Notes: generated by a model from the sequence alone, not told the origin. A stretch of DNA of 64,000 bases from an uncultured Bdellovibrionales bacterium (GCA_964384235.1 CAYLJX010000001.1:22792-86791); one strand, 5' to 3'; shown: positions 2,621-63,400, counted from the stretch's first letter. Program-made: numbers and translations.

Positions 2621-3892
2621 ATGCGGAAACTTTCCCGATATTGCTTTCTGGCGTTTCTTTTCCTGCTGCCGGTGCAGACGGTGTGGTTGTTGTCGGTGCC
2701 GATGGTTGGCGGTGAGGTATTCCAGTACGGGGTGATCGGACTGTACGAGACGGATCTCCTGCTTCTCGGGGCGGCAATGCTCGCGTTTTTGGAGAAGGGT
2801 AAGTGGAGAGAAATTTTTTGCAGAAGGGGAGCGACGGAAAGAATATTGTTCTTATTTTTTGCTTTCGCAGCGCTGTCGGTACTATGGGCGGATGATCGGT
2901 TGATCGCAGGGTTCTTCGTGTGGAAACTCGCACTCGCTACCTTAGCTTTCTTTCTCGCCCGTTCTCTTTCTCAATATGAAAGAAACCAAGCGGTCGTCGT
3001 CCTCCTGTCGGGAGCGGTGATCCAAAGCTTGCTTGCCTTGTGGCAGTTCCTTTCGCAGGGTACGTTTGCTTCGACGTTTCTTGGGATGAGCTTTTACGAC
3101 GCGTGGCAGCCGGGTGTGTCGGTGCTCAAGAACGAATTGGGGAGATGGCTTCGTGCCTACGGCAGTCTGCCGCACCCGAATATTCTCGGTGGATTTCTCG
3201 CAACGACGCTCGTTATCGGTATCGTGTATCGTGTATCAGGTATCAAGTATGAAGAGCGGATTCGGAAGATGTTTGTATCGATAGGGCTTGTTGTCATACT
3301 TTTTGGTCTTCTGCTCACGTTCTCGCGCTCGGCGTGGCTCGGGGCAGTGCTGGGTATAGCGGCGTTGTCTTTCTTCGTTTGGAGAAGCGGGGAGAAGAGG
3401 CTTCGGAAAAATCTTTTGGTACTTTTCGGCGTGCTCGGGGTCGCTTCGATAGCGTTTGTCTCCGTATTGCACGAGACCGTGTTTCCGCGGTTCGATCAGG
3501 CGACGATCGCCCGGGAAGGATCGGTGGTCGACCGGGCCGCGACTATGCGTGAAGGATGGACCGTCATACGGGAGCATCCGCTCATCGGTGTCGGTGTGGG
3601 CAATTATCCACAGGCGCTGCTTGACGCCTTTCCGGAGCGGCCGACGTGGAGTATCCAACCGATACACAAGGTGCCGCTTTTGATCTGGGCGGAGCTCGGC
3701 CTTGTCGGCGTGATACTATTTGTCGCCTTCATGGTTTCAACGGTCCGAAAGGACATCTCTGTCGTCGGGCTCTTGGCGCTTGTCCCCGCTCTCTTGCTCG
3801 ATCACTATCTCTGGACGTCGCATTTCGGACTTTTATTCCTTTTTGTCCTCTTGGGACTTGTGTCTCGTCGTGACGAGGAGAAGAGGGTATAA
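2621..3892 (+). CDS. O-antigen ligase (Wzy_C/WaaL) family membrane protein
   Basis: 423 aa, about 10-12 TM helices and a periplasmic loop with SRSAWLG...HNxxL-type signature (TFSRSAWLGAVLGIAALSFFVW; GVGVGNYPQAL). Confidence 0.6.
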   Translation: MRKLSRYCFLAFLFLLPVQTVWLLSVPMVGGEVFQYGVIGLYETDLLLLGAAMLAFLEKGKWREIFCRRGATERILFLFFAFAALSVLWADDRLIAGFFVWKLALATLAFFLARSLSQYERNQAVVVLLSGAVIQSLLALWQFLSQGTFASTFLGMSFYDAWQPGVSVLKNELGRWLRAYGSLPHPNILGGFLATTLVIGIVYRVSGIKYEERIRKMFVSIGLVVILFGLLLTFSRSAWLGAVLGIAALSFFVWRSGEKRLRKNLLVLFGVLGVASIAFVSVLHETVFPRFDQATIAREGSVVDRAATMREGWTVIREHPLIGVGVGNYPQALLDAFPERPTWSIQPIHKVPLLIWAELGLVGVILFVAFMVSTVRKDISVVGLLALVPALLLDHYLWTSHFGLLFLFVLLGLVSRRDEEKRV

Positions 3893-5833: not shown

Positions 5834-6603
5834 ATTTTGAACAGATGTGGGCTGCCTATATGACGATCGTACGGAAGGAATTCTTCCGCCTGTTCCGCGT
5901 GTGGATACAAACCCTTCTGCCGCCGGTGGTCACGACGGTGCTCTACTTCCTCGTCTTCGGCAAGTTCATCGGGTCGCAGGTGGCGCCGGTGGGCGGCGTG
6001 CCGTACATAGACTTCATCGTTCCGGGAGTCATCATGATCTCGGTCATCACCCAGTCGTTCATGCACTCGGCCTTCGGATACTATCTGGCCAAGTTCCAGC
6101 GGAACCTTGAGGAGATCCTTGTTTCCCCGACGCCGTACTCGGTGATGATCCTCGGGTATGTGACGGGCGGAGTGCTCCGCGGCCTCGTCACGGGCCTCCT
6201 TTTGCTTGTCGTCTCGCTCTTCTTCGTGCCGCTTGCCATCTCGCATGTCGTGCACCTCTTTCTCTTTATCTTCCTCTCCTCGGTGCTCTTCTCGCTTGCC
6301 GGTCTCATCAACGCCATCTTCGCCGGGGACTTCGATACCATCTCGATCTTCCCGACGTTCATCCTGACGCCGCTCACGTACCTTGCCGGGACGTTCTATT
6401 CCCTCTCGATGCTTCCGAAGTTCTGGAGCGATCTCTCGCTCTGGAACCCTATCCTCTACATGATCAATGGATTCCGGTACGGCCTCATCGGTGTCACGGA
6501 TGTGAATATCGGGACGGCCTATGGGATCCTTATCGCCTTCATCGCCGTGCTTGCCGGCACGGTCTGGTATCTCTTCTACACCGGCCGCGGCGTCCGAACG
6601 TAA
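5830..6603 (+). CDS. ABC-2 type transporter permease
   Basis: 257 aa with 6 TM helices. Start overlaps the upstream ATPase stop by 4 nt (coupled). ABC-2 permease topology. Confidence 0.8.
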   Translation: MNFEQMWAAYMTIVRKEFFRLFRVWIQTLLPPVVTTVLYFLVFGKFIGSQVAPVGGVPYIDFIVPGVIMISVITQSFMHSAFGYYLAKFQRNLEEILVSPTPYSVMILGYVTGGVLRGLVTGLLLLVVSLFFVPLAISHVVHLFLFIFLSSVLFSLAGLINAIFAGDFDTISIFPTFILTPLTYLAGTFYSLSMLPKFWSDLSLWNPILYMINGFRYGLIGVTDVNIGTAYGILIAFIAVLAGTVWYLFYTGRGVRT

Positions 6604-6698
6604 GGGGTGTATCTTGTATCCGGTATTTAGTATTTTGGTATCCAAAAATGATTCAAGGCAGCGGACGCGTATGCGTTGCTGCCTTGCAACCGAAAACT

Positions 6699-16473: not shown

Positions 16474-16502
16474 TTTACTTACACTGAAAAGCATTGTATA
16501 AT
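16474..16502 (+). promoter_or_regulatory. putative sigma70-type promoter for the island plus-strand operon
   Basis: TTTACT, a 17-nt spacer, then TATAAT (16497-16502) 14 nt upstream of the ATG at 16516. Small inverted repeats (CTGGTC-aaaaa-GACCAG at 16447-16463) lie just upstream. Confidence 0.35.
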
Positions 16503-16515
16503 AGCCGGAAAGCGT

Positions 16516-20300: not shown

Positions 20301-20306
20301 ATTCGT

Positions 20307-21350: not shown

Positions 21351-21353
21351 TTT

Positions 21354-22424
21354 GTGATTTCTTCATATAAATATCTCAAAGACTATACATACTACTCTGA
21401 CCTCTATGATCGCTTCACCATAGAGGAGTGCCAGCGTTGGGAAGACAAGGAATATCCTGTACCACCTGAAGAATCCGACAAGGAAGCAAAACTGAGAAAA
21501 GTAAAAGAAGAATTCCTTCAAAAAGTGGTTACTCCTCTCGGACTCTACTTTCTCACTGCTGACCGCGCTGCAAAGAAACCTGAAACCATTCAGGAATGGA
21601 TGAGGCGAGACCAAGAAAAGGACGAGCGAGTCACCAACGCTGAAGAACCGAGAAGTATCCGCTGTCTGGGGTGCAGTGCGTTTTTGACAAACTGCATCTC
21701 GCGAGATCTCATGGATAATCACCAAGGACGAGAAGAGGTCCTTTTTATGTTTGAATGTGGCCAGTGTCACAAACGCCGAGCCTTTTGGGAAGATGGCAGA
21801 GAGTGGGAATACAAACCGAAGTGTATAAAGTGCCAGTCAGAAGTGGCGTCGGAAACGACTAAAAAAGATGCTCTCCTTACCACTCGATACACCTGCTCCC
21901 ATTGTGGTCATGTGGAGATAGATACTATGGATCTCAGTAAGAAAGAAGAGGAAAAGATTGATCCTAATTTTGAGGCTAACCGGAAGAAATACTGTATCTC
22001 AGAGCTCGAAGGACAGCGGATTATCCGTGAATCGGAAGAGATGAAGGAGTTTGTTGATAAATGGAAAGAGAGGGATAAGAACAAAGACCTTTATGATGCC
22101 ATAGGAAAGATACAGAAGCTCACCATTGTTGAGCTCCAAGCTCTCCTTGACCCACTTCTTGAAAAAGCTAGCTATACCAAACTCGAGTTCGAGAAGCCCG
22201 TTCTGGAGAAAGATGTTATCCTCGAATTCGGGCTCCAAGATGCCAAATCTGGCCGAGGAGACTATGATAGCCGTCATGATCTTCAAAAGCTCTTCAAAGA
22301 GGCTCTAAGCCCTACAAATTGGCGCCTGATGAGCGATGGAGTCACTTATCGTCTTGGATTCCTCCAAGGGCGCCTAAAGGGCGTAGAAGGCGAGGAAAAG
22401 TTCAAAGAGCTCCTCGAATCCTAA
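21354..22424 (+). CDS. zinc-ribbon protein, hypothetical
   Basis: Four CxxC pairs (CLGC, CGQC, CIKC, CSHC) forming two predicted zinc ribbons. Otherwise charged and helical. Confidence 0.5.
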   Translation: MISSYKYLKDYTYYSDLYDRFTIEECQRWEDKEYPVPPEESDKEAKLRKVKEEFLQKVVTPLGLYFLTADRAAKKPETIQEWMRRDQEKDERVTNAEEPRSIRCLGCSAFLTNCISRDLMDNHQGREEVLFMFECGQCHKRRAFWEDGREWEYKPKCIKCQSEVASETTKKDALLTTRYTCSHCGHVEIDTMDLSKKEEEKIDPNFEANRKKYCISELEGQRIIRESEEMKEFVDKWKERDKNKDLYDAIGKIQKLTIVELQALLDPLLEKASYTKLEFEKPVLEKDVILEFGLQDAKSGRGDYDSRHDLQKLFKEALSPTNWRLMSDGVTYRLGFLQGRLKGVEGEEKFKELLES

Positions 22425-22497
22425 CAAAAGAAAAAAGGTCTTGGTAAATAAGGTTTTACAGGAGACAATACAACTAGTTCTTCTGGGAGTCTTATCG

Positions 22498-22526
22498 TGG
22501 ACAAAACGTGTTTTTTGATGTATAAT
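22498..22526 (+). promoter_or_regulatory. putative internal promoter
   Basis: TGGACA, a 17-nt spacer, then TATAAT (22521-22526) in the 142-nt gap before the kinase gene. Confidence 0.4.
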
Positions 22527-22566
22527 TCACTCAATTTTTAACTCCGATAAAGGTAATCAAAAGAAG

Positions 22567-23178
22567 ATGTCATTCGAAAGCTACAAGCAAGATTCTCGGG
22601 ATATGCATCTCAACCCTGCCGAAGGTAGGGAGTATGCGGAGGCGCTAGAATCATTATTGGAAAAATACAAGGATAAGAGAGTGCTTGTACTTGCGCCACC
22701 AAGTGTTGGGAAGAGTACCATTCTTCAGCATATTAAGGAGGGCGTTGATTTGGATGTGGTGTTTGATGATATGCCAGAAGAATTTAAAAGACATGTGCTG
22801 CACCACGAACACCCGTTTATGTTTATTGATGGTGATAAGAAAACGGTAAAATACACTGAAAAAGAATTTGATCCAATGAGTGATGAGCATCAGGACCACC
22901 TAAAAAAGACAACGGAATCATTGACAGAATATACTCAGAACAAGGTAAATATTGAAGCAGGGCATCCCGCTTTCGGGAGTACACTCATAGATGCGGATGT
23001 CGTTATTTATCTTAAGATTTCTGACGAGGAGCTCAAGAAAAGAATTGAGGCACGGAATACCAAGACTTATCGACTTGCTCAGCTCGAAAGGGTAAAAGCG
23101 ATAAAGAAAAACCTTGAAGCTGATTTGGAGAGATTGAGATCGGAAGGAAAGATTGTCGAGGAGCTGGCAATCTCATAA
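22567..23178 (+). CDS. P-loop NTPase / nucleotide or polynucleotide kinase-like protein
   Basis: Walker A LAPPSVGKST and Walker B-like VVFDD. 203 aa. Confidence 0.6.
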   Translation: MSFESYKQDSRDMHLNPAEGREYAEALESLLEKYKDKRVLVLAPPSVGKSTILQHIKEGVDLDVVFDDMPEEFKRHVLHHEHPFMFIDGDKKTVKYTEKEFDPMSDEHQDHLKKTTESLTEYTQNKVNIEAGHPAFGSTLIDADVVIYLKISDEELKKRIEARNTKTYRLAQLERVKAIKKNLEADLERLRSEGKIVEELAIS

Positions 23179-23201
23179 ATTACCTAAAACAACGTAAACA
23201 T

Positions 23202-23744
23202 ATGAAAATGCAGAAGAAGATAGTCTTTTTGGATGGCGACGGGACGCTCTGGTATCCCAAAGCGACGAAGCGTACGCAAAAACCTCACTGGATTTACCAT
23301 GATCCAGCAACGAAAGATAACTACCTTGAACATCTGGAGTTGACACCTCGGACCAAGGAAACCCTCGAAGCTCTACGAGAAAAGGGAGTCTACCTCGTAG
23401 TGCTTTCAGCCAACCCTTACGCTGAAGAAATAGCTATCAAAGAGATTAAAGAACGACTCGAACACTTTGGACTCAGTAGTTTGTTCTATGCACACAGATC
23501 TTCGAGTGGAGATGATCCAAATGGTAAAGCAACCATTATGGTGGAAATTCTCTCTTCTCTAGGTCTCCGTAAAGAGGACGCGCTGATGGTTGGAGATAGC
23601 TACTTCTATGACTATCTTGCAGCCAAGAATGTTGGTATAGATGCTCTGTTTATTGAAAATGGCGTTTCAAAAATGCCAGAGGAAATCCCTCAGGATTTGC
23701 AGTCAATCAAAGAGGTCCACGAATTGCTTGATATATTGGCCTGA
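23202..23744 (+). CDS. HAD-superfamily phosphatase
   Basis: Motif I FLDGDGTLW (DxDxT), motif II S (VVLSANP), motif III K, and motif IV GDSYFYD. Confidence 0.7.
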   Translation: MKMQKKIVFLDGDGTLWYPKATKRTQKPHWIYHDPATKDNYLEHLELTPRTKETLEALREKGVYLVVLSANPYAEEIAIKEIKERLEHFGLSSLFYAHRSSSGDDPNGKATIMVEILSSLGLRKEDALMVGDSYFYDYLAAKNVGIDALFIENGVSKMPEEIPQDLQSIKEVHELLDILA

Positions 23745-23751
23745 GGTTTCT

Positions 23752-26700
23752 ATGAATGCAGATACCGCAAGAGAAAAGCTCTTAGAATTTAACCAGAAGG
23801 GCGATGCCAGTATACTGGTTGGCTTGCTGGGTATTGCTGAGCATGATGTCGAAAGTGCCATACGTTTTATTAATGCACATGCTGACAAGAATCAGCTAGA
23901 GACATTAGTATTTCAACCACTGAAGGTCAATGAAAAGCATCTCGTATTTGTTGATCCATCGCTTGAGATCAAGGCGGTTAGTACGGATATTGTTCATCTG
24001 AAAAAGACGCTGGAGCAGATTAAGATGTATGATAATGAGAATCCTGTAAGTGTAACTTCCAGTGTTGACTTGAGATGCTTACTCCTCTCGTTAGCAAAGT
24101 CAGAACTCAAATCTTATGATGTTTTTACGAATTTCAATACCGATAACTTAGGTAAAGCCACTCTAAGAAAGTGCCTCGAAGATGAAAAGAACTGGATTAA
24201 AGAAAGAGTTCAAATTCAAAAAGAGCTCATAAATCGCAGCTATAGAAGCGCGGTAGCCTTGGCACGAAAAGTAGCGCGATCCAAAAAGCTCGGGAGAGGT
24301 ATTTACTGCGTGAGAGGGTCTGTGGCTTCAGGAAAGTCTTCATTTATTGAAGGTATCCTTCGCCAGAATATACGGGTATTTGAGAACTCTGGTGGAGTTT
24401 TAAATACTGACGCTCTGAAAAGACAGCTCCTAGTCAATACCCTAAATGTGACTGGTCACGCGCTTTCCGGGTATCTCTTTCACGAGGAAGCTTCAGTCAT
24501 CAGTGAAAAAGTCCTCAAGCTAATTAAAAAATCAACCTCTGGCTACGTAGTTGATAGGAGAATGCAAGATGCTACTGACCTTGATGAATTATTAGTAGAT
24601 GCTGCCGAGAGAAAATTGCCAGTTACCATCTTTGACCTGAAAGTAGATTTCATAACATCAGCTCTGCGTGTTCTTGAGAGAACAGGCGTATATCCAAGCG
24701 ATCCTACGCCAGACTTTTTAGCCTTGTACAAAAGCTATAGAACCATAGAGGAAGGTCGCCTATCCTTCTTAGAAAAATCACTTCGTGCAAAGTCCGTAAA
24801 AAATTACTCTGTTGTTCGAGTGAATAGTAATGGGCATCCGGTCATTGTTAATCTCAAGAAGGACTATAGGGTTAATAAGAAGAGTACGGAACAGGAGTCG
24901 GAAGTGCGATATATAGCAAGTGCTGATAGTTTGCGCGATACAGTGCTCTCTAATGGAAAAACACTCCAGCATACCCTTGATGAGCACTCATACAAGAACT
25001 ACAACATGCGCTATTCTCGGCAAGAGTATTTGGATAGTCTTTTGCATAATATCGAAAAGACTAGCAGAACATTTGCTGGTGAGTTAAATGTCTCTGCATC
25101 AAAAGATAAGTCTCGGCTAGTCAATTTGTTCATGCCGAAGAACGATCTGGCTGATACAACAAGGAATAATATCACTCAAGCATTTGATTTTGTATATGAG
25201 AATAAAAACCTGCCTCTGATATCACCGCAGGTACTCCGAGATTTTATTGATCAAATAGCAAGGATTGTTAATCAAGGGATCGTAAGCGACGAGAATCTGA
25301 TTCTTCGGAGTGGGAGTAATTCCCATAAGTATTTTTATGTAGATACTCGATACATAGAAAGGTTCTATCAATCATTCGTGAATCAGTTTTTCGAAAAGCT
25401 CAATGATCCGGTGATTACATCAGTGGATCTTGCTGCATGGGTTGAATGGAATATCGACTTCTGCGGACATATTTTTGTCGACGGCTGTGGCAGAATAGCC
25501 AAGGTTGTAAGCGCCTGGTTGTTAATGAGAGATAATAGCGACTTACCAGATTATAGTATTGGTCAGGATGGGTTTGAAACAGTCCGAGAATCCTATCGAA
25601 GAAGGTTTGCTCTGAAAGCTAGAGTTCGTCTTCAAATACCAGCTGATACAAAGAGTTATCGTAGCTTTTTGGCCTACTATAGGAGATTGTTCAACCCTAA
25701 GGAAACCTATAAAGTTCTTGCTTCAGGAGGTTTAATATACAATTCATCAGGGCAATTTTTGATACTCCAGACCAGTAAAGGTAAAGATTATGGAAAATGG
25801 GTCGTACCAGGTGGTAAACTTGGCGTTCAAGAGACTCCTGTCGCAGCTTTTGTTCGTGAGGTTTTCGAAGAAACGGGACTGAAGATTGATCACATCATGC
25901 TGATGGGAGTACGAGACTATACGGCAAAAAGTGGTAACCACTATCATTTTTACGACTATACCTCCACTGTTGTAGAAGAGAAAGAAATCAGGATCAATGA
26001 GGAATCACTTTCCTTCAAGTGGATTACGAAGGACCAGATACCAAATTATAAATTTACAGACTCTATTGCTAACTTTGTCAATAAGTACTTTGCATTGGAA
26101 CGCTTGGATATCTATAGCAAGGTAGTTACGGTTCCTGATAAGAACTTTGATTCCCCATACCTAGATGATCACACGATGACTGTTTCATTGGAAAAGTATG
26201 TTCAATCCAAACTACCAGTAGAGCTGATAACGACTAAAGTTAAGACAATAGATAGGGTAGAAGTCCACGGTATATATCCAGATCTTAAGGTTTTAAATGA
26301 TCTTAACCTTGGATTTAATATCCTGGAGGTAATTCACTTCAGTAAACAAAAAAGTGACAACAGCAACAGTTTGAGGCCGATGTTCTTATTAGCTGAAAAA
26401 GACTCTAAGAAACTCCTTGTTTGCTGTGTAACCCCGGGCCGGGATTTATTGATCCACTACGCTTCTATGTTGAAGTATTATTTCAGAAACTCATCAACTC
26501 CTGTATTGGCTTATGCTTATCCGTTCGCCGAAAAGAAAATCGATAAATGGACTGGGTTGGATAACAAGATGATTATAAAAAACGATATCGTTATCCTTGG
26601 TTACAGTACTTTCTTTAGGAATCAGTTTGAGAAAGACCCTGATTTTTCCGTACTCAGCACCTATCAGAACAAGTATTACTCTGCTACGAGATTTATTGCT

Positions 26701-27285
26701 AAAAATGGCAAGATAGTAAATTGTCTTGAAGCAAACTATGGACATTGGGGTGACATAAGTGACTTTTTGGCGCAGAAGATATGTCAGTTACATGCATCAG
26801 AAATTCTACACATAGGTAAGGTTGGTACTTTGAAGTCTCCGAGCGAAGTGTATAAGCGAATCTATATACCGAAATCTTTCGTCATAGGAAGAAGGAATGA
26901 GATTATGAGTATTGGCTCCAGAATCAGTAACTCGATGGAGTACATAAAGGAACATTCTTCCTTGGCACACGTTTCAGTATCTACAACAATGGAAGAAACA
27001 TTTGCTCAACGGAAAAACTTATCTCAAAAAAAGGTCGACACTATAGATATTGAATCTTCAAAGATTGCCCGTGCGGTTGCCCTATACAACTTAGCAAATA
27101 AGGCAAAAGTGAAGTTTGGAGCAATACACTTCTCTTCTGATTATTTGAAAAAGCCAGATGAGGTCGGTAATGGTGCAGATTTGGATTTGGCAACCAATAG
27201 AGAGGAATTGGAATACAGAAAGAAAAGTATCCTGATTGAAATTTCGTCTGTTATAAAAAAACATCTTCTAAAGACAAGTTCTTAG
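23752..27285 (+). CDS. 1177-aa multidomain protein: P-loop (zeta-toxin/AAA-like) kinase, Fic/Fido motif, Nudix hydrolase, nucleoside phosphorylase (PNP_UDP_1)-like
   Basis: Start taken at ATG 23752 (MNADTAR); the tracked ORF start at 23641 would overlap the HAD gene. Walker A GSVASGKSS (res 189-197). Fido motif HIFVDGCGR (res 573-581). Nudix box GGKLGVQETPVAAFVREVFEETGL (res 686-709). C-terminal VSVSTTMEETF...DIESSKIARAVALYNLANKAKVKFGAIHFSSDY resembles the DeoD/MTAN active-site region. Confidence 0.75.
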   Translation: MNADTAREKLLEFNQKGDASILVGLLGIAEHDVESAIRFINAHADKNQLETLVFQPLKVNEKHLVFVDPSLEIKAVSTDIVHLKKTLEQIKMYDNENPVSVTSSVDLRCLLLSLAKSELKSYDVFTNFNTDNLGKATLRKCLEDEKNWIKERVQIQKELINRSYRSAVALARKVARSKKLGRGIYCVRGSVASGKSSFIEGILRQNIRVFENSGGVLNTDALKRQLLVNTLNVTGHALSGYLFHEEASVISEKVLKLIKKSTSGYVVDRRMQDATDLDELLVDAAERKLPVTIFDLKVDFITSALRVLERTGVYPSDPTPDFLALYKSYRTIEEGRLSFLEKSLRAKSVKNYSVVRVNSNGHPVIVNLKKDYRVNKKSTEQESEVRYIASADSLRDTVLSNGKTLQHTLDEHSYKNYNMRYSRQEYLDSLLHNIEKTSRTFAGELNVSASKDKSRLVNLFMPKNDLADTTRNNITQAFDFVYENKNLPLISPQVLRDFIDQIARIVNQGIVSDENLILRSGSNSHKYFYVDTRYIERFYQSFVNQFFEKLNDPVITSVDLAAWVEWNIDFCGHIFVDGCGRIAKVVSAWLLMRDNSDLPDYSIGQDGFETVRESYRRRFALKARVRLQIPADTKSYRSFLAYYRRLFNPKETYKVLASGGLIYNSSGQFLILQTSKGKDYGKWVVPGGKLGVQETPVAAFVREVFEETGLKIDHIMLMGVRDYTAKSGNHYHFYDYTSTVVEEKEIRINEESLSFKWITKDQIPNYKFTDSIANFVNKYFALERLDIYSKVVTVPDKNFDSPYLDDHTMTVSLEKYVQSKLPVELITTKVKTIDRVEVHGIYPDLKVLNDLNLGFNILEVIHFSKQKSDNSNSLRPMFLLAEKDSKKLLVCCVTPGRDLLIHYASMLKYYFRNSSTPVLAYAYPFAEKKIDKWTGLDNKMIIKNDIVILGYSTFFRNQFEKDPDFSVLSTYQNKYYSATRFIAKNGKIVNCLEANYGHWGDISDFLAQKICQLHASEILHIGKVGTLKSPSEVYKRIYIPKSFVIGRRNEIMSIGSRISNSMEYIKEHSSLAHVSVSTTMEETFAQRKNLSQKKVDTIDIESSKIARAVALYNLANKAKVKFGAIHFSSDYLKKPDEVGNGADLDLATNREELEYRKKSILIEISSVIKKHLLKTSS

Positions 27286-27308
27286 TGGTTTTCTACGACT
27301 TCTGTATT

Positions 27309-37137: not shown

Positions 37138-38811
37138 ATGGCAGAAACAGACCGAGGGACGGCTTCCGACGGACAGTCGCCAGGCGAGGTGGATGTGACT
37201 GATCGTGCGACCGCACTCAACATCCCTCTTTTGAGCGAGGTTCCCCGCGAACTCGACAAAACCGTTCTCTCGGTCATCCCCGAGGAATCGGCGAGGAAGT
37301 ACCGGATGGTCGCCTTCAAGAAAGAAGGGGAGACGCTTCATGTTGCCATGGTGGATCCCCAGGACTTCGAGGCGCTCAATGTCCTACGGTTCCTGGCTGA
37401 GAAGGAACGTCTAGGTATCGAGGTCTATCTGACGACCGAAAAGGTGTTCTCCGATGTCGCCAAGAATTACACCGGAACGGACCAGGCCCTCAAGGATGCG
37501 ATCCTCTCCCTGAAGAAGGAGGAGAACATCACGCTGGAAATCAAGGAGGAAAAGAAGGCGCAGGGCAAAGACGCGGAGATATTTCAGGACGCACCGATCG
37601 CCAAGTTGGTGGAGGTCATTGTCAAGCATGCCATGGACGGCCGGGCGAGCGATATCCATATCGAGCCGGTGGAGGGGAGTTACCGGGTGCGGTTCCGTAT
37701 CGACGGACTGCTCCGCTCGCAGCTCGTCTTTCCGATAGAGGTCGGCCGGGCGGTCATCTCGCGTATCAAGATCCTCTCCAATCTCAAGATCGATGAGAAG
37801 CGCAAACCTCAGGACGGCCGCTTCCGTTTCGAGGGGGAGGACGAAGCTGTCGACCTGCGCGTCTCCAGTCTGCCGGTGATCGATGGTGAGAAGATCGTGA
37901 TGCGCGTCCTGGACAAGAGTCACAACGTGAGCGATCTGGAGAAGCTCGGACTGTGGGGGAGGAACCGGTCGGTGCTGGAGCGACGGATCCGCGAACCGTT
38001 CGGTATCATCCTCATCACCGGACCGACCGGCTCGGGTAAGTCCACCACGCTTTACGCGTTCCTGCAGATCCTCAACCAGGAAGAGCGCAACATCATCACG
38101 CTCGAGGACCCGGTCGAGTACTATGTCGAGGGTATCAATCAGAGTCAGATCAAGCCGGAGATCGGATATACCTTCGCGAGCGGACTGCGCTCCATCCTGC
38201 GCCAGGACCCCAATGTCATCATGGTCGGTGAGATCCGTGACAGCGAGACGGCGGAGCTTGCCATCCATGCGGCGCTCACCGGACACCTCGTCCTCTCGAC
38301 TTTGCATACCAATGATGCCATCGGCGCGGTGCCGCGTCTCATCGATATGGGGATCGAACCGTTTCTCCTGGCTTCGTCACTGCAGGTGATGGCGGCGCAA
38401 CGTCTGGTACGGCGTATCTGCGACCAGTGCAAGGAGCCTCTGGAACTCTCGTCCGTGCAGCGTTCCCGGCTTCAGGAGTTCTTCAAGAGTATTCCTGAGG
38501 AAGAAGTCCGCGCTTATGATCTCGATCCAAAGCGGGAACTCGTCTTTTACCACGGCAAGGGATGCGACGAGTGTGGCAATACCGGATACAAGGGACGGAT
38601 CGCAGTCTACGAAGTGTTGGAAGTCGATGAGGGAGTGCACGAGATCATCGCCGACAAGAACGGGAACGAAGTGGAACTCCGTAAGGCCGCCGACAATCAG
38701 AAGATGCTTTCCATGAAACAGGATGGCTTGCTCAAGGTGCTCAAAGGTATCACGACGCTCGCGGAAATGGAACGCGTGACGGAAGGGAAGATCCTTGTCG
38801 ATGAGGAGTGA
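37138..38811 (+). CDS. pilB: type IV pilus assembly ATPase PilB (GspE family)
   Basis: GSPII_E N-domain, Walker A GPTGSGKST, Asp box, His box, and a tetracysteine motif (CDQC...CDEC). Confidence 0.9.
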   Translation: MAETDRGTASDGQSPGEVDVTDRATALNIPLLSEVPRELDKTVLSVIPEESARKYRMVAFKKEGETLHVAMVDPQDFEALNVLRFLAEKERLGIEVYLTTEKVFSDVAKNYTGTDQALKDAILSLKKEENITLEIKEEKKAQGKDAEIFQDAPIAKLVEVIVKHAMDGRASDIHIEPVEGSYRVRFRIDGLLRSQLVFPIEVGRAVISRIKILSNLKIDEKRKPQDGRFRFEGEDEAVDLRVSSLPVIDGEKIVMRVLDKSHNVSDLEKLGLWGRNRSVLERRIREPFGIILITGPTGSGKSTTLYAFLQILNQEERNIITLEDPVEYYVEGINQSQIKPEIGYTFASGLRSILRQDPNVIMVGEIRDSETAELAIHAALTGHLVLSTLHTNDAIGAVPRLIDMGIEPFLLASSLQVMAAQRLVRRICDQCKEPLELSSVQRSRLQEFFKSIPEEEVRAYDLDPKRELVFYHGKGCDECGNTGYKGRIAVYEVLEVDEGVHEIIADKNGNEVELRKAADNQKMLSMKQDGLLKVLKGITTLAEMERVTEGKILVDEE

Positions 38812-39001
38812 ATGATGAATGAGGAGATAGGAATAACGAATAAGGAATAGCGAATGATGAAAATAGGAGGAAGAGAATTTTTTTGATATACTTTCAGTAA
38901 AGACAACCCATGAATGAGTGGAGAATTCCGAGGAAGAAACAAGCCTGAGAGAATCCTTGCATCATAATTCATCATTCATATCTCATCATTCATAATTCCA
39001 A
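38810..39001. repeat. inverted pair of heptanucleotide-periodic arrays (GAATNNN x about 10 on the left, ATTCATN x about 6 on the right)
   Basis: Left array GAATGAT GAATGAG GAGATAG GAATAAC GAATAAG GAATAGC GAATGAT GAAAATA... (38810-38879). Right array CATCATA ATTCATC ATTCATA TCTCATC ATTCATA (38960-38994), the reverse complement of the left unit. They are separated by about 80 nt in the pilB-pilT intergenic gap. Confidence 0.6.
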
Positions 39002-41338: not shown

Positions 41339-41412
41339 AATAAGAATGAGGTTCGGATGAATTTCTCGAACTCGTAAAAAATAAAAATCAAAAATAGAAA
41401 GGTGGTGAGAAT

Positions 41413-41772
41413 ATGAAAAAAACATTGAAAGGCTTTACCCTTATCGAGCTCCTCATCGTCATCGCGATCATCGGTATTCTCGCCTCGATCGTGCTCGTGA
41501 GTCTCTCCAACGCCCGGACGAAGGCGCAGGTCGCATCGTTCAAGTCGGAGACGTCCGGATCGGTTGCCGGACTTCTGTCCCAGTGTGACTCGGGAAACAT
41601 CACGCTTCCCAACAATACCAATACGACGACCTGGGCTTCGGTTGACGCCGAAGACTGCGGTGCTGCCGGATCAGGCACGTTCGAGATAACCGCAAGTCCG
41701 GTGAACACGGCTATCAACTGCACGGCGAACGTCACGAACACAGGTGTTCTCTATAGCGGTGGCGGCTGTTAG
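41413..41772 (+). CDS. pilA: type IV major pilin (prepilin N-terminal methylation domain)
   Basis: MKKTLKG|[20 protein letters not shown] class III signal, with a C-terminal disulfide pair. Confidence 0.85.
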
Positions 41773-41813
41773 TATCGACGGATCGTCTAAAAGTTAAAGA
41801 AGAGGGTATAATT

Positions 41814-42173
41814 ATGAAAAAAGTACAGAAGGGTTTCACCCTTATCGAGCTCCTCATCGTCATCGCGATCATCGGTATTCTCGCCTCGATCGTGCTCGTG
41901 AGTCTCTCCAACGCCCGGACGAAGGCGCAGGTCGCATCGTTCAAGTCGGAGACATCAGGTGCGGTAGCAGGACTTCTCCTGCAGTGTGACTCGGGAAACA
42001 TCACGCTTCCTGCGGACACCAATACCACGAACTACCCGACGACTGCGACGCAGAGCTGCGGCGCTTCGGGAAGCGGCACGTTCAACTTTACCGCTACACC
42101 GGTGAACACGGCTGTCAACTGCACGGCGACCGTGACGAATACTGGGGCGACCTACGTCGGAGGCGGTTGCTAA
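41814..42173 (+). CDS. type IV pilin paralog (tandem duplicate)
   Basis: Same leader and first about 45 residues as 41413..41772, encoded by identical DNA over about 130 nt. Divergent C-terminal half. Confidence 0.85.
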
Positions 42174-44024: not shown

Positions 44025-44477
44025 ATGCATAAAAAAACAAAAAGACTCTTTTCAAAGAGTGATCTCGGTTTCACCCTCATCGAGCTCCTCATCGTCATCG
44101 CGATTATCGGTATTCTCGCGTCCGTCGTGCTCGTGAGTCTTTCCGTTTCCCGGACCAAGGCCCAGTTATCCGCTTTCAAGGGAGAGGTCGCCGGAGCGGC
44201 TGCCGGATTTACGCTTGCCTGTGAAAACAGTTTCGCCGCCCTGCAGACGGCCATAGTGGCTGCTAATACGGCGAGCAAAAACGTGGAGTATGTGAACGTC
44301 AACCCTGGAAACGGGACGACTCCCAGAACGGCGAGCTGTGGCACTGCCGGATCCGTACGGTTCAATATCACGGCGAACACGAGTGCTGATTCTTTGAACG
44401 CTCTCTGTGAATCCTCTACTGATCCCACTACCTCTGTCACGGAGAGCGGTGCATGGTTTTTGCCGACTTGCCGCTAA
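44025..44477 (+). CDS. type IV pilin (third paralog)
   Basis: ...SDLG|[25 protein letters not shown] prepilin signal. Confidence 0.8.
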   Translation: MHKKTKRLFSKSDLGFTLIELLIVIAIIGILASVVLVSLSVSRTKAQLSAFKGEVAGAAAGFTLACENSFAALQTAIVAANTASKNVEYVNVNPGNGTTPRTASCGTAGSVRFNITANTSADSLNALCESSTDPTTSVTESGAWFLPTCR

Positions 44478-47703: not shown

Positions 47704-49882
<2,179 letters not shown>

Positions 49883-57941: not shown

Positions 57942-59411
57942 ATGAAATATTTTCCCGTCATCGGAATGGAAGTACATGCGGAACTCAAGACCAGTTCCAA
58001 GATGTTTTGTCGCTGCAAGAACGGTCTCGGTCTGGAGAAGGAACCGAATGTCCATATCTGCCCGGTCTGTACCGGCCAGCCGGGAACGCTTCCCGTCCCG
58101 AACCGAGAGGCCATCGAAGCCGTGCAGAAAGCGGGTCTCGCGCTCAACTGTGGGCTTCGCCTCAAGTCGAAATTCGACCGCAAGAACTATTTCTATCCCG
58201 ACCTTCCGAAGGGGTACCAGATTTCCCAGTACGATGAGCCGTTCTGCGAGAAAGGGACGATCGAGATTGAGGGAAGAACATTCCGTATCACCCGTATCCA
58301 CCTCGAGGAGGACACGGGCAAATCGATGCACCCGACTGATGCGAACTACACGCAAGTCGACTTTAATCGTGCCGGCGTGCCCTTGATGGAGCTCGTCACC
58401 GAGCCGGACTTCTCGACGGGTAAGGAGGCGCGGGCGTTCTGTCAGAAGCTCCAGCAGATCCTCCGCTATCTCGAAGTCTCCGACGCGGACATGGAGAAGG
58501 GGCAGATGCGCTGTGAGGTGAACATCTCCCTTTACAAGGAGGGCGAGGAGCGCCTCTCCGGAACCAAAGTCGAGATCAAGAACCTCAACTCGTTCAAGGT
58601 GGTGGAGCGCGCCATCGATTACGAGATCAAGCGCCAGACGGAAGCGCTGGAAAACGGTGAGAAGATCGTCCAGGAGACGCGGGGCTGGGACGAGAACCGG
58701 GGCGCGACGGTTTCCCAGCGCAAGAAGGAATCCGCTCACGACTACCGGTATTTCCCCGAGCCGGATATCCCGCCTTTCGAATTCGACGAGGCGTATGTGG
58801 AGGGACTTCGGCAGACGCTCCCAGAACTGCCCGATGCCAAGGCGAAGCGCTTCGTCTCGGAGTACGCCTTGCCGGAAGCCGACGCGGCGACACTGACCCT
58901 TGAGAAGGATTTCGCGGCGTATTTCGAATCAGTCGTGAGCGAGCTTTCGGAAAAAGTGAAATCAAAAGAAGTGAACGCGCCCTTGGAGCGTGTGGCGAAG
59001 CTTGCGGCCAACTATATGCTCACGGAACTTCGCAAGTATCTCACCGAAGAAGGGAAGACCGTGGCGGAACTTCCCATCACGCCGGAAAATTTCGCGGAAC
59101 TCATCGGGATCGTGGCCGACGGCAAGATCAACTCGAGTGCGGCGCAGACCGTGCTCGCGGAAATGTACCGGGGCGGTGACAACGATCCCACGCACATCAT
59201 CGAGCGGCTCGACCTCGGGCAGGTCTCCGATACGGGAGCTCTCGAAGGAATGGTCGATGCAGTCCTTGCCGCCAATGAGAAATCCGTCACTGATTACAAA
59301 GCCGGCAAGGAAAATGCCCTCAAGTACCTCATGGGCCAGGTGATGAAGGAAACGAAGGGAAAAGCCAACCCCCAAGTGGTGTCAGAAATACTCCGAAAGA
59401 AATTGAGCTAA
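57942..59411 (+). CDS. gatB: Asp/Glu-tRNA amidotransferase subunit B
   Basis: MKYFPVIGMEVHAELKTSSKMFC is a classic GatB start. 489 aa. Confidence 0.95.
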   Translation: MKYFPVIGMEVHAELKTSSKMFCRCKNGLGLEKEPNVHICPVCTGQPGTLPVPNREAIEAVQKAGLALNCGLRLKSKFDRKNYFYPDLPKGYQISQYDEPFCEKGTIEIEGRTFRITRIHLEEDTGKSMHPTDANYTQVDFNRAGVPLMELVTEPDFSTGKEARAFCQKLQQILRYLEVSDADMEKGQMRCEVNISLYKEGEERLSGTKVEIKNLNSFKVVERAIDYEIKRQTEALENGEKIVQETRGWDENRGATVSQRKKESAHDYRYFPEPDIPPFEFDEAYVEGLRQTLPELPDAKAKRFVSEYALPEADAATLTLEKDFAAYFESVVSELSEKVKSKEVNAPLERVAKLAANYMLTELRKYLTEEGKTVAELPITPENFAELIGIVADGKINSSAAQTVLAEMYRGGDNDPTHIIERLDLGQVSDTGALEGMVDAVLAANEKSVTDYKAGKENALKYLMGQVMKETKGKANPQVVSEILRKKLS

Positions 59412-60358
59412 AGGAGTTTTTCAGCTTTGTTTGGGTTTTCTATCCAGTGGATAGAAGCGCCTTGCTTTTCCCACCGTCTAAGCCACGTGAGCTGACGCTT
59501 GGCATAGTGCCAGATTTCGTGCAAGAGTTTTTCGATCATCTCTTCGCGGGAAATTTTCTTTTGAAGGAAGAACGCGACGTATCGGTATTCGAGGCCGAAG
59601 CTTTCCAATCGTTTCCAGCTCAAACCTTCTTTCCGCAACCGTTCCACCTCCTCGATCATGCCTTCCCTAAGCCTCTTTTCAAGGCGTGTTTTGATGTTTT
59701 TTTGTAATGCTTCTTTCGGAGGGTTGAGGCAGATGATGACGGTATTTTTGTATCTTGTATCTTGTTTCTTGTATCTTGTGCTCGGGATTTTTCCGAGTGT
59801 TTCGACAATTTCCAACGCTCGTATCAATCGTACTTTGTTGTGTTGATCTATCGAGGCGGCTCGTTCAGGATCTTTCTTCTCAAGCATTTCAAAAAGTTCC
59901 AAAGCGGAAAGCTTGTTGAGTTTTTTTCGAAGCACCGGATCAGGTTTGACTGTGGGGAAGACACTGCCTTCGATGAGGGTCTGCGCCCAGAAACCGGTCC
60001 CGCCGCAGATGATGACTGTTTTTCCGCGTTTGCGGATATCCTGGATCGCCTTCTTGGCATCACGGACGAAGTGCGTCACGTTGTATGTCCGTTTGGGTGA
60101 CGCAACATCGAGGAGATGATGACGGATGCTATCGGAATAGAATTCATTTTTGTATCTTGTATCTTGTATCTTGTATCTTGTGGCAGGGTCTCGTGTCACC
60201 TTGCCGCTACCGATATCCATTCCGTGATAGACTTGCCGGCTGTCGGCGGAGATGATCTCACCGTCGTATTTCTTTGCTAGGGCAATGGCTAAATCCGACT
60301 TGCCGGAAGCCGTCGGTCCAACAATGATTATTATTTTGTTTTGATCGAGCTCCTTCAT
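59408..60358 (-). CDS. miaA: tRNA dimethylallyltransferase MiaA, with two repeat-encoded insertions
   Basis: P-loop GPTASGKS and ISADSRQVY. Contains TRYKIQDTRYKN and TRYKKQDTRYKN insertions encoded by TATCTTG heptamer arrays. Confidence 0.9.
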   Translation of the reverse strand: MKELDQNKIIIIVGPTASGKSDLAIALAKKYDGEIISADSRQVYHGMDIGSGKVTRDPATRYKIQDTRYKNEFYSDSIRHHLLDVASPKRTYNVTHFVRDAKKAIQDIRKRGKTVIICGGTGFWAQTLIEGSVFPTVKPDPVLRKKLNKLSALELFEMLEKKDPERAASIDQHNKVRLIRALEIVETLGKIPSTRYKKQDTRYKNTVIICLNPPKEALQKNIKTRLEKRLREGMIEEVERLRKEGLSWKRLESFGLEYRYVAFFLQKKISREEMIEKLLHEIWHYAKRQLTWLRRWEKQGASIHWIENPNKAEKLL

Positions 60359-60464
60359 TTCTTGATATTAATCCGTTTCAGTCGACAATAGAGAAGTATA
60401 GTGGGACTCGTATAAAGTATCTAGGAAAAGGACCATTCAAATACTTAATACTCAATACAAGATA

Positions 60465-63400
60465 CTAGATACGGGTTCCCGTCACTCCTTCGAGGGCCTG
60501 TATCCGTTCGAGGTGTTCCGGGGCGAGGGCGACGGAGAAAGTGGTCTCGATGACGGAGCCCTGGATCTTGACCGCGACCTTGATCGGACCGGCGGGCACG
60601 GTCTTGAGGAAATGCGAGAGATCGTTTACGATCTTGGGATTCTTTTCCGGAGCGAGACTGATGAGGAGTTTTCCGGAAGAGGAAGGAATGGAGGTAGAAA
60701 GGGAAGCCGCCGCCGCTTCGTTCTGTTCACGGAGGACCTGATTCTTTTCCCGGGTCGCCTCGATGCGGGCGAACTGATGAAGCGTATCGGGGGAGACACG
60801 CTCCAGGCTCTCGGCGACGCACTTGAGCATGCCGTCCTTGTGCGAGACGCGGGCGTCGACGATGACGACCTCGTCCGGGATCCACGATCCGTCAGTCTGT
60901 TCGGCGGTGCGGCCGAAGACAAGGAGTTCGATGCGTCCGGTCATGTCTTCGAGCGAGACGAAGAACATGGTACTGCCGTTCTTGGTGAGGACCTTGCGGA
61001 CGGCCGTGATGACTCCGCCAATACGGACCCGCGCGCTGTCAGGTTTCTTCTCGAGGTCATGGATGGGGACGGCGGTCTTGCCGAAGTAGGCCTGGTATTC
61101 GCTCGCGGGGTGGTCGCTCACGTACAATCCAAGGAGTTCCTTTTCCCAGCCGAGGCGCGTCTTCTTGTCGGCGGGGACGGCGGGGGAGAGCTGGATCTTG
61201 CTCTCCGGCATGGCCATGCCTCCGAAGAGGCTCGCGTGGTGCGTGTCGGCGATGGTCTTGAGGTTCTTGGCGTGGCGGAGGATGTCGTCGAGGCTTTCGA
61301 GGAGCTGGTTGCGCTCGCCGAAGTCTTCCAGGGCGCCGACTTTGGCGAGGGATTCGAGGGAGCGCTTGTTGAGATCCTTGGTCTGGACGCGTTCGATGAA
61401 GTCCTCGAGGCTTTTGAATTTCCCGCTTTCCTTGCGAACCTTCACGATCTCTTCGGCGCAGACAGAGCCGACGTTTTTGATGGCGTTCAATCCGAAACGG
61501 ATGCGCTCTTTTCCATCGTCGCCAATAATGACAGCAAATTCCTCGAAGCTTTCGTTGACGTTCGGTGGCAGGACCTCGAGACCGATCTCCCGGGCCTCGT
61601 GCACTTCGATGGCGATACGGTCGGTGTCGTGCTGGTCGGAAGTAAGGAGGGCGGCCATGAACTCGGCAGGATAATGCGCCTTGAGGTAGGCGGTCTGGTA
61701 GCCGATGAGGGCGTAGCAGGCGGCGTGGGAGCGGTTGAAACCGTAGCCGGCGAACGGTTCGATGAAGGCGAAGACCTGTTCGCCGATCTTTTTGCCGACA
61801 CCGGTTTTCACACAGCCCTCGATGAACTTTTCGCGCTGCTCGGCGACGAGTTCCTTGATTTTCTTGCCGACCGCTTTGCGGAGCACGTCCGCTTCACCCA
61901 GGGTGAAACCGGCCAAGTCACGGGCGATCTGCATGAGCTGTTCCTGATAGACGGCCACGCCGTAAGTGTTCTTGAGGATCGGTTCGAGCGTGGGGTGGAG
62001 GTACTCGACCTGCTTGGTGCCGTGCTTGCCGCCGATGAAGTCGGGAATGTATTCCATCGGACCCGGACGGTAGAGGGCGACCATGGCGATGATGTCCTCG
62101 AAGACGGTGGGTTTGAGTTGTTTCAAGTAGCGTTTCATGCCGCTCGATTCCAACTGGAAGACGCCGGTGGTGTGGGCATCCTGCAGGACCTTGAAGGCGG
62201 CCTCGTCGTCGAGGGGGAGGCGGCTCATGATGTCGGCGACGGTCGCGGTCTCGGCGTCCAACCCGAGTCTTTCCGTGAGCGGAGGAAGTTTCTTGAGGGC
62301 GCGCACGATGCGCAGGGTATTCTGGATGATGGTGAGGTTCTTGAGACCGAGGAAGTCCATCTTGAGGAGGCCGATTTTCTCAACGGCGTTGGCCTTGGTG
62401 CTGGCGGCGTACTGGGTGACGACGCCCTCACGGGATCCGGAGACGCGCTGCAAGGGCGTGTATTCAGTGACCGGGTCCTTGGTGATGACGACACCACAGG
62501 CGTGCATCGAGGCGTGGCGGGCCAGTCCTTCGATGGTCTGGGCCGCGTCGATGAGTTTCTTGGCGTCAGGATTCTTTTCGTAGTGCTGTTTGAATTCCGG
62601 GACTTCCTCGAGAGCCTTCTTGATCGAGGTGAACATCGGGATCATCTTGGCGGTCTGATCGCAGAGCGCCAAAGGGATGCCGAGCGCGCGGCCGACGTCG
62701 CGGATGGCGGCGCGGGCGGCCATCGTCCCGAAGGTGATGATCTGTGCGACGTGGTCGCTTCCGTATTTGCGTCGCACGTAGTCGAGCACCGCTTCGCGGC
62801 GATCGTCGGCGAAGTCCATATCGACATCGGGCATGGAGATACGTTCGGGATTGAGGAAGCGCTCGAAGAGGAGATCGTACTTGATCGGGTCGAGGTCGGT
62901 GATGCCGGTGAGATAGGCGACGAACGAGCCGGCGGCCGAACCGCGGCCCGGACCCACGATGACGCCGTTGTCCTTGGCCCAGTTGACGAAGTCCTGGACG
63001 ATCAAGAAGTATGAGGCGAAGCCGGTCTTTTCGATGACGGAGAGTTCGTAGTCGAGACGAGTATGCTGTTCGTCGGTGATGGTCTGTCCGGGGAAACGCT
63101 TGGCGAGGCCCTGTTCGCAGAGTTCACGGAGGTATCCGTCGGCTGTCTTGCCATCGGGCAGGGGGAAGGAGGGGAGGTGGTTCTCACCCATCTGGATCTT
63201 GACGTTACAGGCATCGGCGATTTTTTGGGTGTTTTCGATGGCTTCCGGGACGTCCTTGAAAATTTCCGCCATCTCTTCGGGGGAGCGAAGCGACAAGTCG
63301 AGGGCCTTCATGCTGAAACGCTCGGTATCGGTGACTTTCTTGTTGTCACGGATGCAGAGGAGAATATCCTGGACTTCCGCATCCTCTTTTTTGACATAGT

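Follow-up and report, generated by a model that had tools for sequence, protein, structure and literature searches.

Why should a gene for a tRNA-modifying enzyme carry, twice and in frame, a run of units whose length of 7 nt is not divisible by three? The question is raised by a stretch of 64,000 nt from an uncultured Bdellovibrionales bacterium (GCA_964384235.1, CAYLJX010000001.1:22792-86791), referred to here at its full length as the window. Its miaA gene, which codes for tRNA dimethylallyltransferase, contains two nearly identical blocks of the heptamer TATCTTG. According to our analysis, these are ancient, paralogous, in-frame arrays which are part of a lineage-wide population of heptamer arrays. 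We consider it probable that they are heptanucleotide simple-sequence repeats (SSRs) in permissive loops of the protein, kept by slippage or conversion between units, with the encoded peptide being a passenger. The nearest homologues of MiaA and LigA from the window are found in Candidatus Moranbacteria (Moraniibacteriota), which belong to the Patescibacteria or Candidate Phyla Radiation (CPR), and the putative assignment of the window to the Moranbacteria rests on these best homologues.

Two heptamer arrays in loops of MiaA

A sequence-only reading of the window had named miaA as the host gene of the blocks, and this was borne out (Table 1). The protein carries the P-loop GPTASGKS, the DSRQVY motif, and the IPPT domain, with the Pfam match spanning residues 42-295. 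It aligns over its full length with the three solved MiaA structures listed in Table 1, and the invariant motifs are present in the orthologue alignment.

The site-1 block (copy B) reads ATTTTTG, four units of TATCTTG, and a terminal TG on the plus strand. The site-2 block (copy A) has TTTCTTG as the third of its four units and is otherwise the same, so that the blocks are identical at 36 of 37 bases, with a spacing of 402 nt. Tandem Repeats Finder (TRF) reports a period of 7 and 4.6 copies for both blocks, with 100% matches for site 1 and 92% for site 2. The earlier description as two near-identical blocks about 400 nt apart was thus accurate, and both are indeed present at the positions proposed for them (59745-59778 and 60146-60180), except that copy A starts at 59744 and carries the variant unit. 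The 14-mer TATCTTGTATCTTG, which corresponds to two units, has nine matches with up to two mismatches in the window (0.27 expected).

On the coding strand, site 1 consists of four ACAAGAT units followed by ACAAAAAT and codes for the peptide TRYKIQDTRYKN (T60-N71). At site 2, where one unit is ACAAGAA, the peptide is TRYKKQDTRYKN (T194-N205). Both blocks are in frame (codons 60-71 and 194-205). Read on this strand, each is composed of about four CAAGATA units plus a decayed unit, CAAAAAT. The module is made of direct repeats alone, with no terminal or internal inverted repeat and no hairpin potential. The two miaA copies show no target-site duplication, and their flanks share nothing outside the module.

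Relative to the three solved structures, site 1 is a net insertion of 14-16 aa after DIGxGK. At site 2 there is no gap and zero net length change; the heptamer-coded peptide thus replaces the native loop. In the AlphaFold2 (AF2) model of MiaA from the window, the predicted local distance difference test score (pLDDT) has a mean of 80. It falls below 50 at residues 42-70 (site 1) and is 64 at residues 191-200 (site 2), between a helix (175-188) and a strand (206-211). It had been claimed that the blocks encode duplicated peptide insertions in MiaA loops. Alignment to orthologues and structures confirms in-frame, duplicated peptides in two variable loops, but a net insertion is found only at site 1, site 2 being a loop replacement of the same length.

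A further array, inverted with respect to those in miaA, is located upstream of the gene. It has five degenerate units (GTATCTA, GTATCTT, GTATTGA, GTATTAA, GTATTTG), and the string CAATACAAGATACTAGATAC is found at 60453-60472. The array covers the last codons and the stop codon (TAG, 60465-60467) of dnaE and lengthens the dnaE-miaA spacer, which is 31 nt in relatives, where this array is lacking. The third, partial copy that had been placed in the miaA-dnaE intergenic region (60448-60467) is therefore real and upstream of miaA, but it is shifted to 60453-60472, inverted, degenerate, and not purely intergenic because it overlaps the dnaE stop codon.

The window contains at least nine period-7 arrays with differing units; three of them lie within ligA and another in a Wzy_C gene. 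Among arrays of at least 25 nt, five have a period of 7 and none has a period of 5, 6, 8, or 9. For period-7 arrays of at least 19 nt, the count is nine, compared to 0.93 expected from Markov simulations. Five arrays in the 64 kb belong to the GTATC family, one of them inverted. Two of the three ligA arrays correspond to 14-aa insertions when gauged against LigA from E. coli. The AAGTCAA unit of ligA recurs twice in L015, and once more at site 1 of miaA in L035. What the sequence-only reading implied, a single ATTTTTG(TATCTTG)n element or a duplication specific to miaA, is thus replaced by one case of lineage-wide heptamer arrays with many units.

Table 1. Coordinates of miaA, its upstream neighbour, and period-7 arrays in the window
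Feature	Position	Strand	Basis
Array (GTATCNN)n, in frame in Wzy_C (O-antigen ligase-like) membrane protein; peptide VIGIVYRVSGIKY	3213..3250	plus	family D4, 68% to miaA module
Degenerate array TATCTTG TATCCGG TATTTAG TATTTTG at end of open reading frame (ORF) 5830-6603	6603..6639	plus	family D4
Inverted pair of (GAATNAN)n arrays, pilB-pilT spacer	38810..38998 (38810-38855, 38962-38998)	plus	TRF
ligA array (ACTCACT)4.3, in frame; 14-aa insertion before KxDG adenylation motif	48099..48131	plus	TRF; LigA comparison
ligA array (AAGGCAG/AAGGCAAT), in frame, 14-nt higher-order period	48500..48531	plus	TRF
ligA array (AAGTCAA)4.6, in frame; 14-aa insertion in HhH region	49431..49465	plus	TRF; LigA comparison
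miaA coding sequence (CDS; tRNA dimethylallyltransferase, 316 aa), array host	59408..60358	minus	ORF; Pfam PF01715 IPPT, E=1e-62; PDB matches 3d3q, 2qgn, 2zm5; top homologues Candidatus Moranbacteria MiaA
Site-2 heptamer module	59744..59780	minus	direct sequence; TRF
Site-1 heptamer module	60146..60182	minus	direct sequence; TRF
Degenerate five-unit array (GTATY+NN)5, inverted relative to miaA arrays	60440..60472 (approx.)	minus	direct sequence, 14-mer search, TRF
dnaE (DNA polymerase III alpha), upstream neighbour of miaA	60465..63950	minus	ORF; dnaE-miaA-gatB synteny, Pfam PHP/DNA_pol3_alpha in relatives

Arrays in relatives and across Patescibacteria

Four related loci (L201, L202, L203, and L207), about 65% identical to the window at the protein level, keep the gene order dnaE-miaA-gatB and have the miaA module at the same positions. 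Site 1 of L201 and L202 reads (AAGATAC)4 AAAAAC and is identical to the window at 33 of 33 bases. In L207, the site is shorter by 21 nt, which is exactly three units (one unit compared to four). In L203, which is 86% identical to L202, a remnant is left and the array is lost. Site 2 has the same boundaries in L203 as in the window, two adjacent units sharing a T>G exchange. In L207 the site-2 module is present with one variant unit, and in L202 it is decayed. In L201, an A>G exchange is found in all four units, which results in the peptide RYEIRDTRYEK with its charge reversed. Four-fold degenerate sites are saturated between the window and these relatives (31-48% identity). Both miaA modules are ancestral and common to the window and the four loci. 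From the shared modules together with the saturated four-fold sites, it follows that the arrays are ancient and were inherited from a common ancestor. They evolve unit-wise (concerted evolution) and change length in steps of three units, and selection on the peptide probably does not maintain them.

Array content can also be exchanged within a short time. Over 6.6 kb of dnaE-miaA-gatB, loci L204 and L205 share 93.2% identity, but they differ wholly in about 90 nt at site 2 (L204, 10569-10650; L205, 4390-4480). The patch concerned contains (ACATTCA)n in one case and (AGCAAGN)n in the other, and spans the array plus 20-25 nt on each side. This patch represents a rapid replacement, probably by recombination.

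Within a set of 120 Moranbacteria-type MiaA proteins, hypervariable indels are found at two positions, namely sites 1 and 2. At a lag of 7 residues, site 2 has 237 identities (25-75 at other lags) and site 1 has 200 (71-173 at other lags), which indicates that nearly every orthologue carries a heptamer-coded peptide at both sites. The units differ, as seen from peptides such as QHSTFNIQHS, NYKLQTTNY, NRESRIENRES, and ISNSQFLISK, and on a neighbour-joining tree of the orthologues, the unit families broadly follow the clades. Some of the short MiaA forms (287-298 aa) are without the site-1 insert. LigA orthologues likewise have period-7 peptide runs with other units at the three array sites of the window, even in a 78%-identical orthologue; because whole-protein lag-7 counts are not clean for LigA (other lags are also high), we relied on the clustering at these three sites. 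The array signal is located at the DNA level rather than the protein level, as evident from the lag-7 excess, the clade-differing peptides, and the unit-wise substitutions in L201 and L203.

Other small repeats were encountered at the same MiaA positions. Peptides related to HPELVEG...IPRQARND occur at site 1 in many orthologues; a palindromic element of the HPELVEG type is absent from the window. In miaA of L206 (1776-2813; Moranbacteria metagenome-assembled genome GCA_043785755.1), a 66-nt palindrome, GTCACCCTGAGCGAAGCGAAGGATCCCC...GGGATTCCTCGCGACACTCGGAGTGAC, is in frame at both sites, the copies being identical at 66 of 66 bases, and the 90-nt stretch holding it folds at -34 kcal/mol. The presence of this palindrome in both loops indicates that they act as sinks for small repeats generally. 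The L206 element and the HPELVEG peptides constitute a family of in-frame elements in Moranbacteria which resembles the Rickettsia palindromic elements (RPE). RPE are palindromes of 100-150 nt. As with the miaA modules, they are small repeat DNA in frame in surface loops of housekeeping proteins, which stay intact, and more than one copy is possible; unlike RPE, the miaA modules consist of direct tandem repeats, are 36 nt long, and have no potential to form a hairpin. In addition, GC-rich, hairpin-like peptides (LPVRQAG, PACWSGR, PARIATRSVAGG, PACAKPACRQGRALAGRQ) were seen at the protein level within or beside heptamer peptides of P0061, P0022, P0088, P0116, P0106, P0040, P0097, and GatA of L173. 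They suggest that very small repeats of a second class insert into arrays.

Beyond close relatives, we analysed 80 MiaA loci from diverse Patescibacteria which, with the window, amount to 1.34 Mb. Arrays of at least 3.5 copies number 28 for period 7, while periods 6 and 8-12 yielded 0, 1, 1, 0, 0, and 0. The density of period-7 arrays in this set is 38 per Mb; a control of 100 kb from E. coli K-12 had no period-7 array of at least 25 nt. Arrays are AT-rich (25% GC, compared to 43% for their hosts). Their lengths form two modes, of which the second (29-35 nt) is seen in coding and intergenic DNA alike. More than half of the arrays (58%) are within the approximately 8% of DNA outside long ORFs, an about 16-fold intergenic enrichment across the lineage. 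About 40% are read in frame within conserved housekeeping enzymes, where they occupy orthologous loops. In coding arrays, the A-rich strand is the sense strand; the peptides are rich in K/N/Q/T/R/D/S/I in soluble enzymes, and membrane proteins have hydrophobic readings. Exact units are shared by 19 pairs of arrays (5.5 expected) before orthologues are discounted, and by a modest excess thereafter. A common TTG/CAA anchor in all units was considered and rejected (CAA in 40% of 45 arrays, 29% expected).

A metagenome scan for (TATCTTG)3 returned at least 120 loci. Among the matches listed, arrays extend over 21-162 nt with variable end phase, and about half are in long open frames of unrelated proteins, read mostly as TRYKIQD. 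Nine host proteins were assigned by Pfam to the CCA/poly(A) polymerase family, GltX, POR, radical SAM, GyrA, GatA, Mur ligase, PriA, and RsmA. When orthologous hosts are compared, both unit and site agree in RsmA, a second pair has one unit at different sites, Mur ligase has different units at one site, and O-antigen-ligase-like proteins carry an in-frame inverted pair. The contigs of the listed matches contain 134 further period-7 arrays with other units (194 per Mb). CAAGATA as a favoured unit found no support from viral contigs, which had 7 loci with (CAAGATA)3 and 20 with the permuted (CAAGAAT)3.

Two metagenome contigs deserve mention. PriA of L183 has three different heptamer-coded peptides (GIRNQESGIRN, KNYKLKTTNY, QDTRYKIQDTN) of the same families as in MiaA and LigA orthologues. 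L091 has a 985-aa DnaG-primase-like ORF with a TRYKIQD array and, judged by eye only, an intein-like insertion near the N-terminus.

Origin and maintenance of the arrays

How could such arrays arise and persist? In the explanation which we favour, strand slippage, or out-of-register repair or conversion between units, would create the arrays and keep them homogeneous, following an idea of Mrazek et al. (2007). It is the unit-wise changes and the three-unit deletion that point to slippage as the generator. Within genes, arrays would pass a filter which the data bear out: they persist if their total length is a multiple of three, if no reading frame of the unit has a stop codon, if the A-rich strand is the coding strand, which makes the peptide hydrophilic, and if they are located in a disordered loop at the protein surface. 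MiaA would offer two such permissive loops, one after DIGxGK and the other linking the last helix of the helical domain to the core strand that follows. One ancestral 36-nt copy may have been duplicated between them by ectopic conversion or duplicative insertion; both copies were in place before at least five sampled lineages split. Concerted evolution, unit loss in threes, decay, or replacement followed. The peptide is probably a tolerated passenger, and as a side effect each array would be a built-in frameshift hazard.

Several points weigh against this explanation. Slippage alone leaves unaccounted for that lengths cluster at 29-35 nt, in intergenic arrays as well, and that an identical module, including its decayed end unit, is found at two sites 400 nt apart. 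An extra argument is needed for the 33 of 33 identity of the site-1 array between lineages with saturated four-fold sites. Plausibly, units evolve slowly since a homogenised change is never silent, each unit position being read as codon position 1, 2, and 3. The same few unit families turn up in genes and genomes that are unrelated, which could mean spread by copy and paste. Finally, slippage has been deduced, with no event seen directly.

Patescibacteria might have an active, sequence-aware process which both writes and maintains arrays of about 33 nt from 7-nt units. It could be a dedicated, slippage-prone mode of repair or replication, or the copying and pasting of modules far smaller than the known mobile elements. 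We put this forward as a tentative idea which is unlikely to be correct. If it were, the discrete length, the recurring unit families, and the nucleotide-perfect miaA module would be signatures of the process and not of passive slippage plus selection, and disordered loops in essential enzymes would be continually made and exchanged.

Similarly doubtful is a reading of the 36-nt module as a tiny mobile element of the non-autonomous kind, or as a cassette that ectopic recombination moves. It would be copied into sites that are permissive or preferred, with the two miaA loops as repeated targets. This would fit the identity of the module at two sites of one gene, non-repeat end included, the five GTATC-family arrays in 64 kb with one of them inverted, and the discrete array size of about 29-35 nt. 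It would also fit the in-frame occurrence of (CAAGATA)n in many unrelated housekeeping proteins from metagenomes (GltX, GyrA, PriA, GatA, RsmA, Mur ligase, CCA enzyme). The site-2 patch swapped between 93%-identical genomes points the same way, as does the L206 palindrome, which implies that the loops receive copies of whichever small repeat is active. However, the two copies have neither target-site duplications nor terminal inverted repeats, and the start and end phase of arrays is variable among the metagenome matches listed (at least 120 loci). The modules are passed on vertically across lineages without leaving their sites, and they change in situ, unit by unit. The viral-contig counts given above do not favour the CAAGATA unit, and no candidate transposase was identified.

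An array of 7-nt units within an ORF might also act as a contingency switch, slippage by one or two units shifting the frame of miaA and reversibly turning off i6A37 tRNA modification. We consider this improbable. A known case is neuO of the E. coli K1 prophage CUS-3, where an (AAGACTC)n heptanucleotide repeat of variable number lies in the ORF and only frame-keeping copy numbers give the full-length protein. The likeness is close in that a heptamer is read in three frames and results in a hydrophilic peptide with a period of 7 aa (RLKTQDS in neuO, TRYKIQD in miaA), but neuO, an accessory gene, is a phase-variation locus of high variability, whereas the miaA arrays have a copy number conserved across species and an architecture that is shared with arrays in essential genes. 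In miaA, site 1 is just 60 codons from the start and copy number differs among relatives (four units versus one). Furthermore, MiaA is dispensable in model bacteria, where its loss alters translation fidelity. Like arrays are nevertheless not confined to dispensable genes: they occur in ligA (three), at the end of dnaE, and in gyrA, priA, gltX, and gatA from metagenome contigs, and in ligA, dnaE, gyrA, priA, and gltX OFF states would be lethal. Moreover, four units are kept in three to four lineages, the sole variant seen differing by exactly three units. A crude frameshift screen, which flags gene junctions and thus sets only a bound, gave no convincing out-of-frame alleles (in-frame versus possible frameshift arrays 19:3 and 54:13).

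Slightly less credible still is selection of the peptides as protein features, for example as extra basic loops (net charge +3) which aid tRNA binding by MiaA. K/R-rich peptides in nucleic-acid enzymes, the conservation of RYKIQDTRYKN at site 1 in the window, L201, and L202, and the presence of some insert in both loops of most of the 120 orthologues would be in line with such a role. But conservation is at the nucleotide level, with zero synonymous differences, against saturated four-fold sites elsewhere. Peptides in orthologues are unrelated, some of them acidic or hydrophobic-leaning (RYEIRDTRYEK, ISNSQFLISK, QHSTFNIQHS), or the site-1 insert is missing (forms of 287-298 aa). AF2 predicts disorder, and the same units are found in unrelated proteins and in intergenic DNA.

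Action at the RNA level is a still more remote option. The upstream inverted array would pair with the site-1 array and sequester the miaA start, or an OB-fold protein (Csp/S1 type) would bind heptamers and tune translation. In both the minimum free energy and the centroid fold of 60135-60480 (minus strand), the start codon is indeed enclosed by the paired arrays (-95.6 kcal/mol, z=-3.9), inverted heptamer pairs recur in the pilB-pilT spacer as well as in L039, L068, L085/L121, and L113, and heptamer repeats near start codons and the binding of heptamer repeats by CspB are known from the literature. The upstream array is, however, absent from four of four relatives that keep the internal arrays. 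As the predicted pairing is not conserved, we treat it as incidental. The arrays between the pilB-like and pilT-like genes pair in the predicted fold, which is no better than that of shuffled sequences (z=-1.4), and Rfam gave no known RNA family around miaA at E<=1. An inverted partner as a general property of arrays was rejected: within 400 nt, 14 of 45 arrays have an inverted match (at least 12 of 14 positions) and 11 of 45 a direct one.

An assembly or sequencing artefact can be practically discounted, since reading frames are preserved and related genomes, assembled independently in different projects (NCBI, ENA, JGI, Logan), have these arrays at the same sites.

Known heptamer repeats and further features of the window

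With slippage-maintained SSRs as the favoured explanation, the closest known class comprises the heptanucleotide SSRs surveyed by Mrazek, Guo & Shah (2007). As that survey is cited in PMC4692102 and PMC4679880, these are the most abundant class of long SSRs in many bacteria, are over-represented relative to other units of 5-11 nt, and have been proposed to be caused by polymerase slippage. Like them, the miaA arrays are 7-nt tandem repeats of few to several units with copy numbers differing between relatives. In the survey, as cited there, units not divisible by three are mostly outside genes, whereas here about 40% of arrays are in frame within genes. The units here are AT-rich, and array length clusters at 29-35 nt.

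The short tandemly repeated repetitive sequences (STRR) of cyanobacteria (Mazel et al., 1990), of which one is inside the RNase P RNA gene (Vioque, 1997), are comparable. So are the G-rich dispersed heptamer arrays of Xanthomonas (GGGAATC) and Nostoc (GGGGAYT) (PMC4692102). Common traits are mostly four or more units, location near ORF ends, overlap with stop codons, and inverted pairs forming hairpins (PMC4692102), and, as with the RNase P RNA gene, tolerance at variable positions of functional genes. Those systems consist of a few conserved G-rich families which are mostly intergenic, while here many AT-rich units are found, frequently in frame, in Patescibacteria. The miaA blocks share the features of heptamer SSRs and STRR (tandem 7-nt units, at least three of them, dispersed occurrence, period-7 excess, unit-wise variation) except for the intergenic location. 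The main copies are inside the CDS, and the third, degenerate copy alone has the usual STRR location at an ORF end (dnaE stop).

Direct repeats of TAACTGA in marine Beggiatoaceae, cyanobacteria, and Bacteroidetes have 2-6 copies and adjoin start codons (PMC4679880). There, too, a unit is common to distant lineages without an evident transfer mechanism, and some copies are translated (PMC4679880). These repeats have one dominant unit and a proposed role in translation initiation, in contrast to the many units without consistent start-codon position reported here. In Borg proteins, perfect tandem repeats arise within ORFs, evolve fast, and add disordered segments (PMC9879509). Perfect repetition at the nucleotide level and added disorder are shared (PMC9879509), but the coding units of Borgs are divisible by three, while in miaA only the total length is. 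The literature searched contained no paper linking heptamer repeats with Patescibacteria. The old problem "why seven?", posed by STRR and by the SSRs of Mrazek et al., reaches a new phylum. It is testable there because orthologous in-frame arrays record gain, three-unit steps, concerted change, and replacement unusually cleanly.

If the favoured explanation holds, a large share of the length variation and of the low-complexity loops in housekeeping proteins of CPR/Patescibacteria would originate from DNA-level heptamers and not from protein adaptation. Heptamer segments should then be masked in annotation, alignment, and phylogeny of CPR, and be treated as passengers when structure and function are deduced. 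In these very small genomes, each array would make an essential gene latently prone to a frameshift.

Other features of the window are listed for completeness. Type IV pilin paralogues with a GFTLIELL N-terminus are in tandem, with stretches of 87-94% identity, and a third related copy follows 2.2 kb downstream (41399-42173 and 44067-44210 taken together). An A-rich, period-7-like tract (41375-41400) is directly upstream of the first paralogue. The region 16500-27300 has a low GC content (40-43%, flanks 52-60%) and looks like an acquired or defence island. Encoded there are a protein of 998 aa that matched nothing in Pfam (17304-20300), a Schlafen AlbA_2 protein (20307-21350), and a NUDIX-domain protein of 1214 aa (23641-27285).

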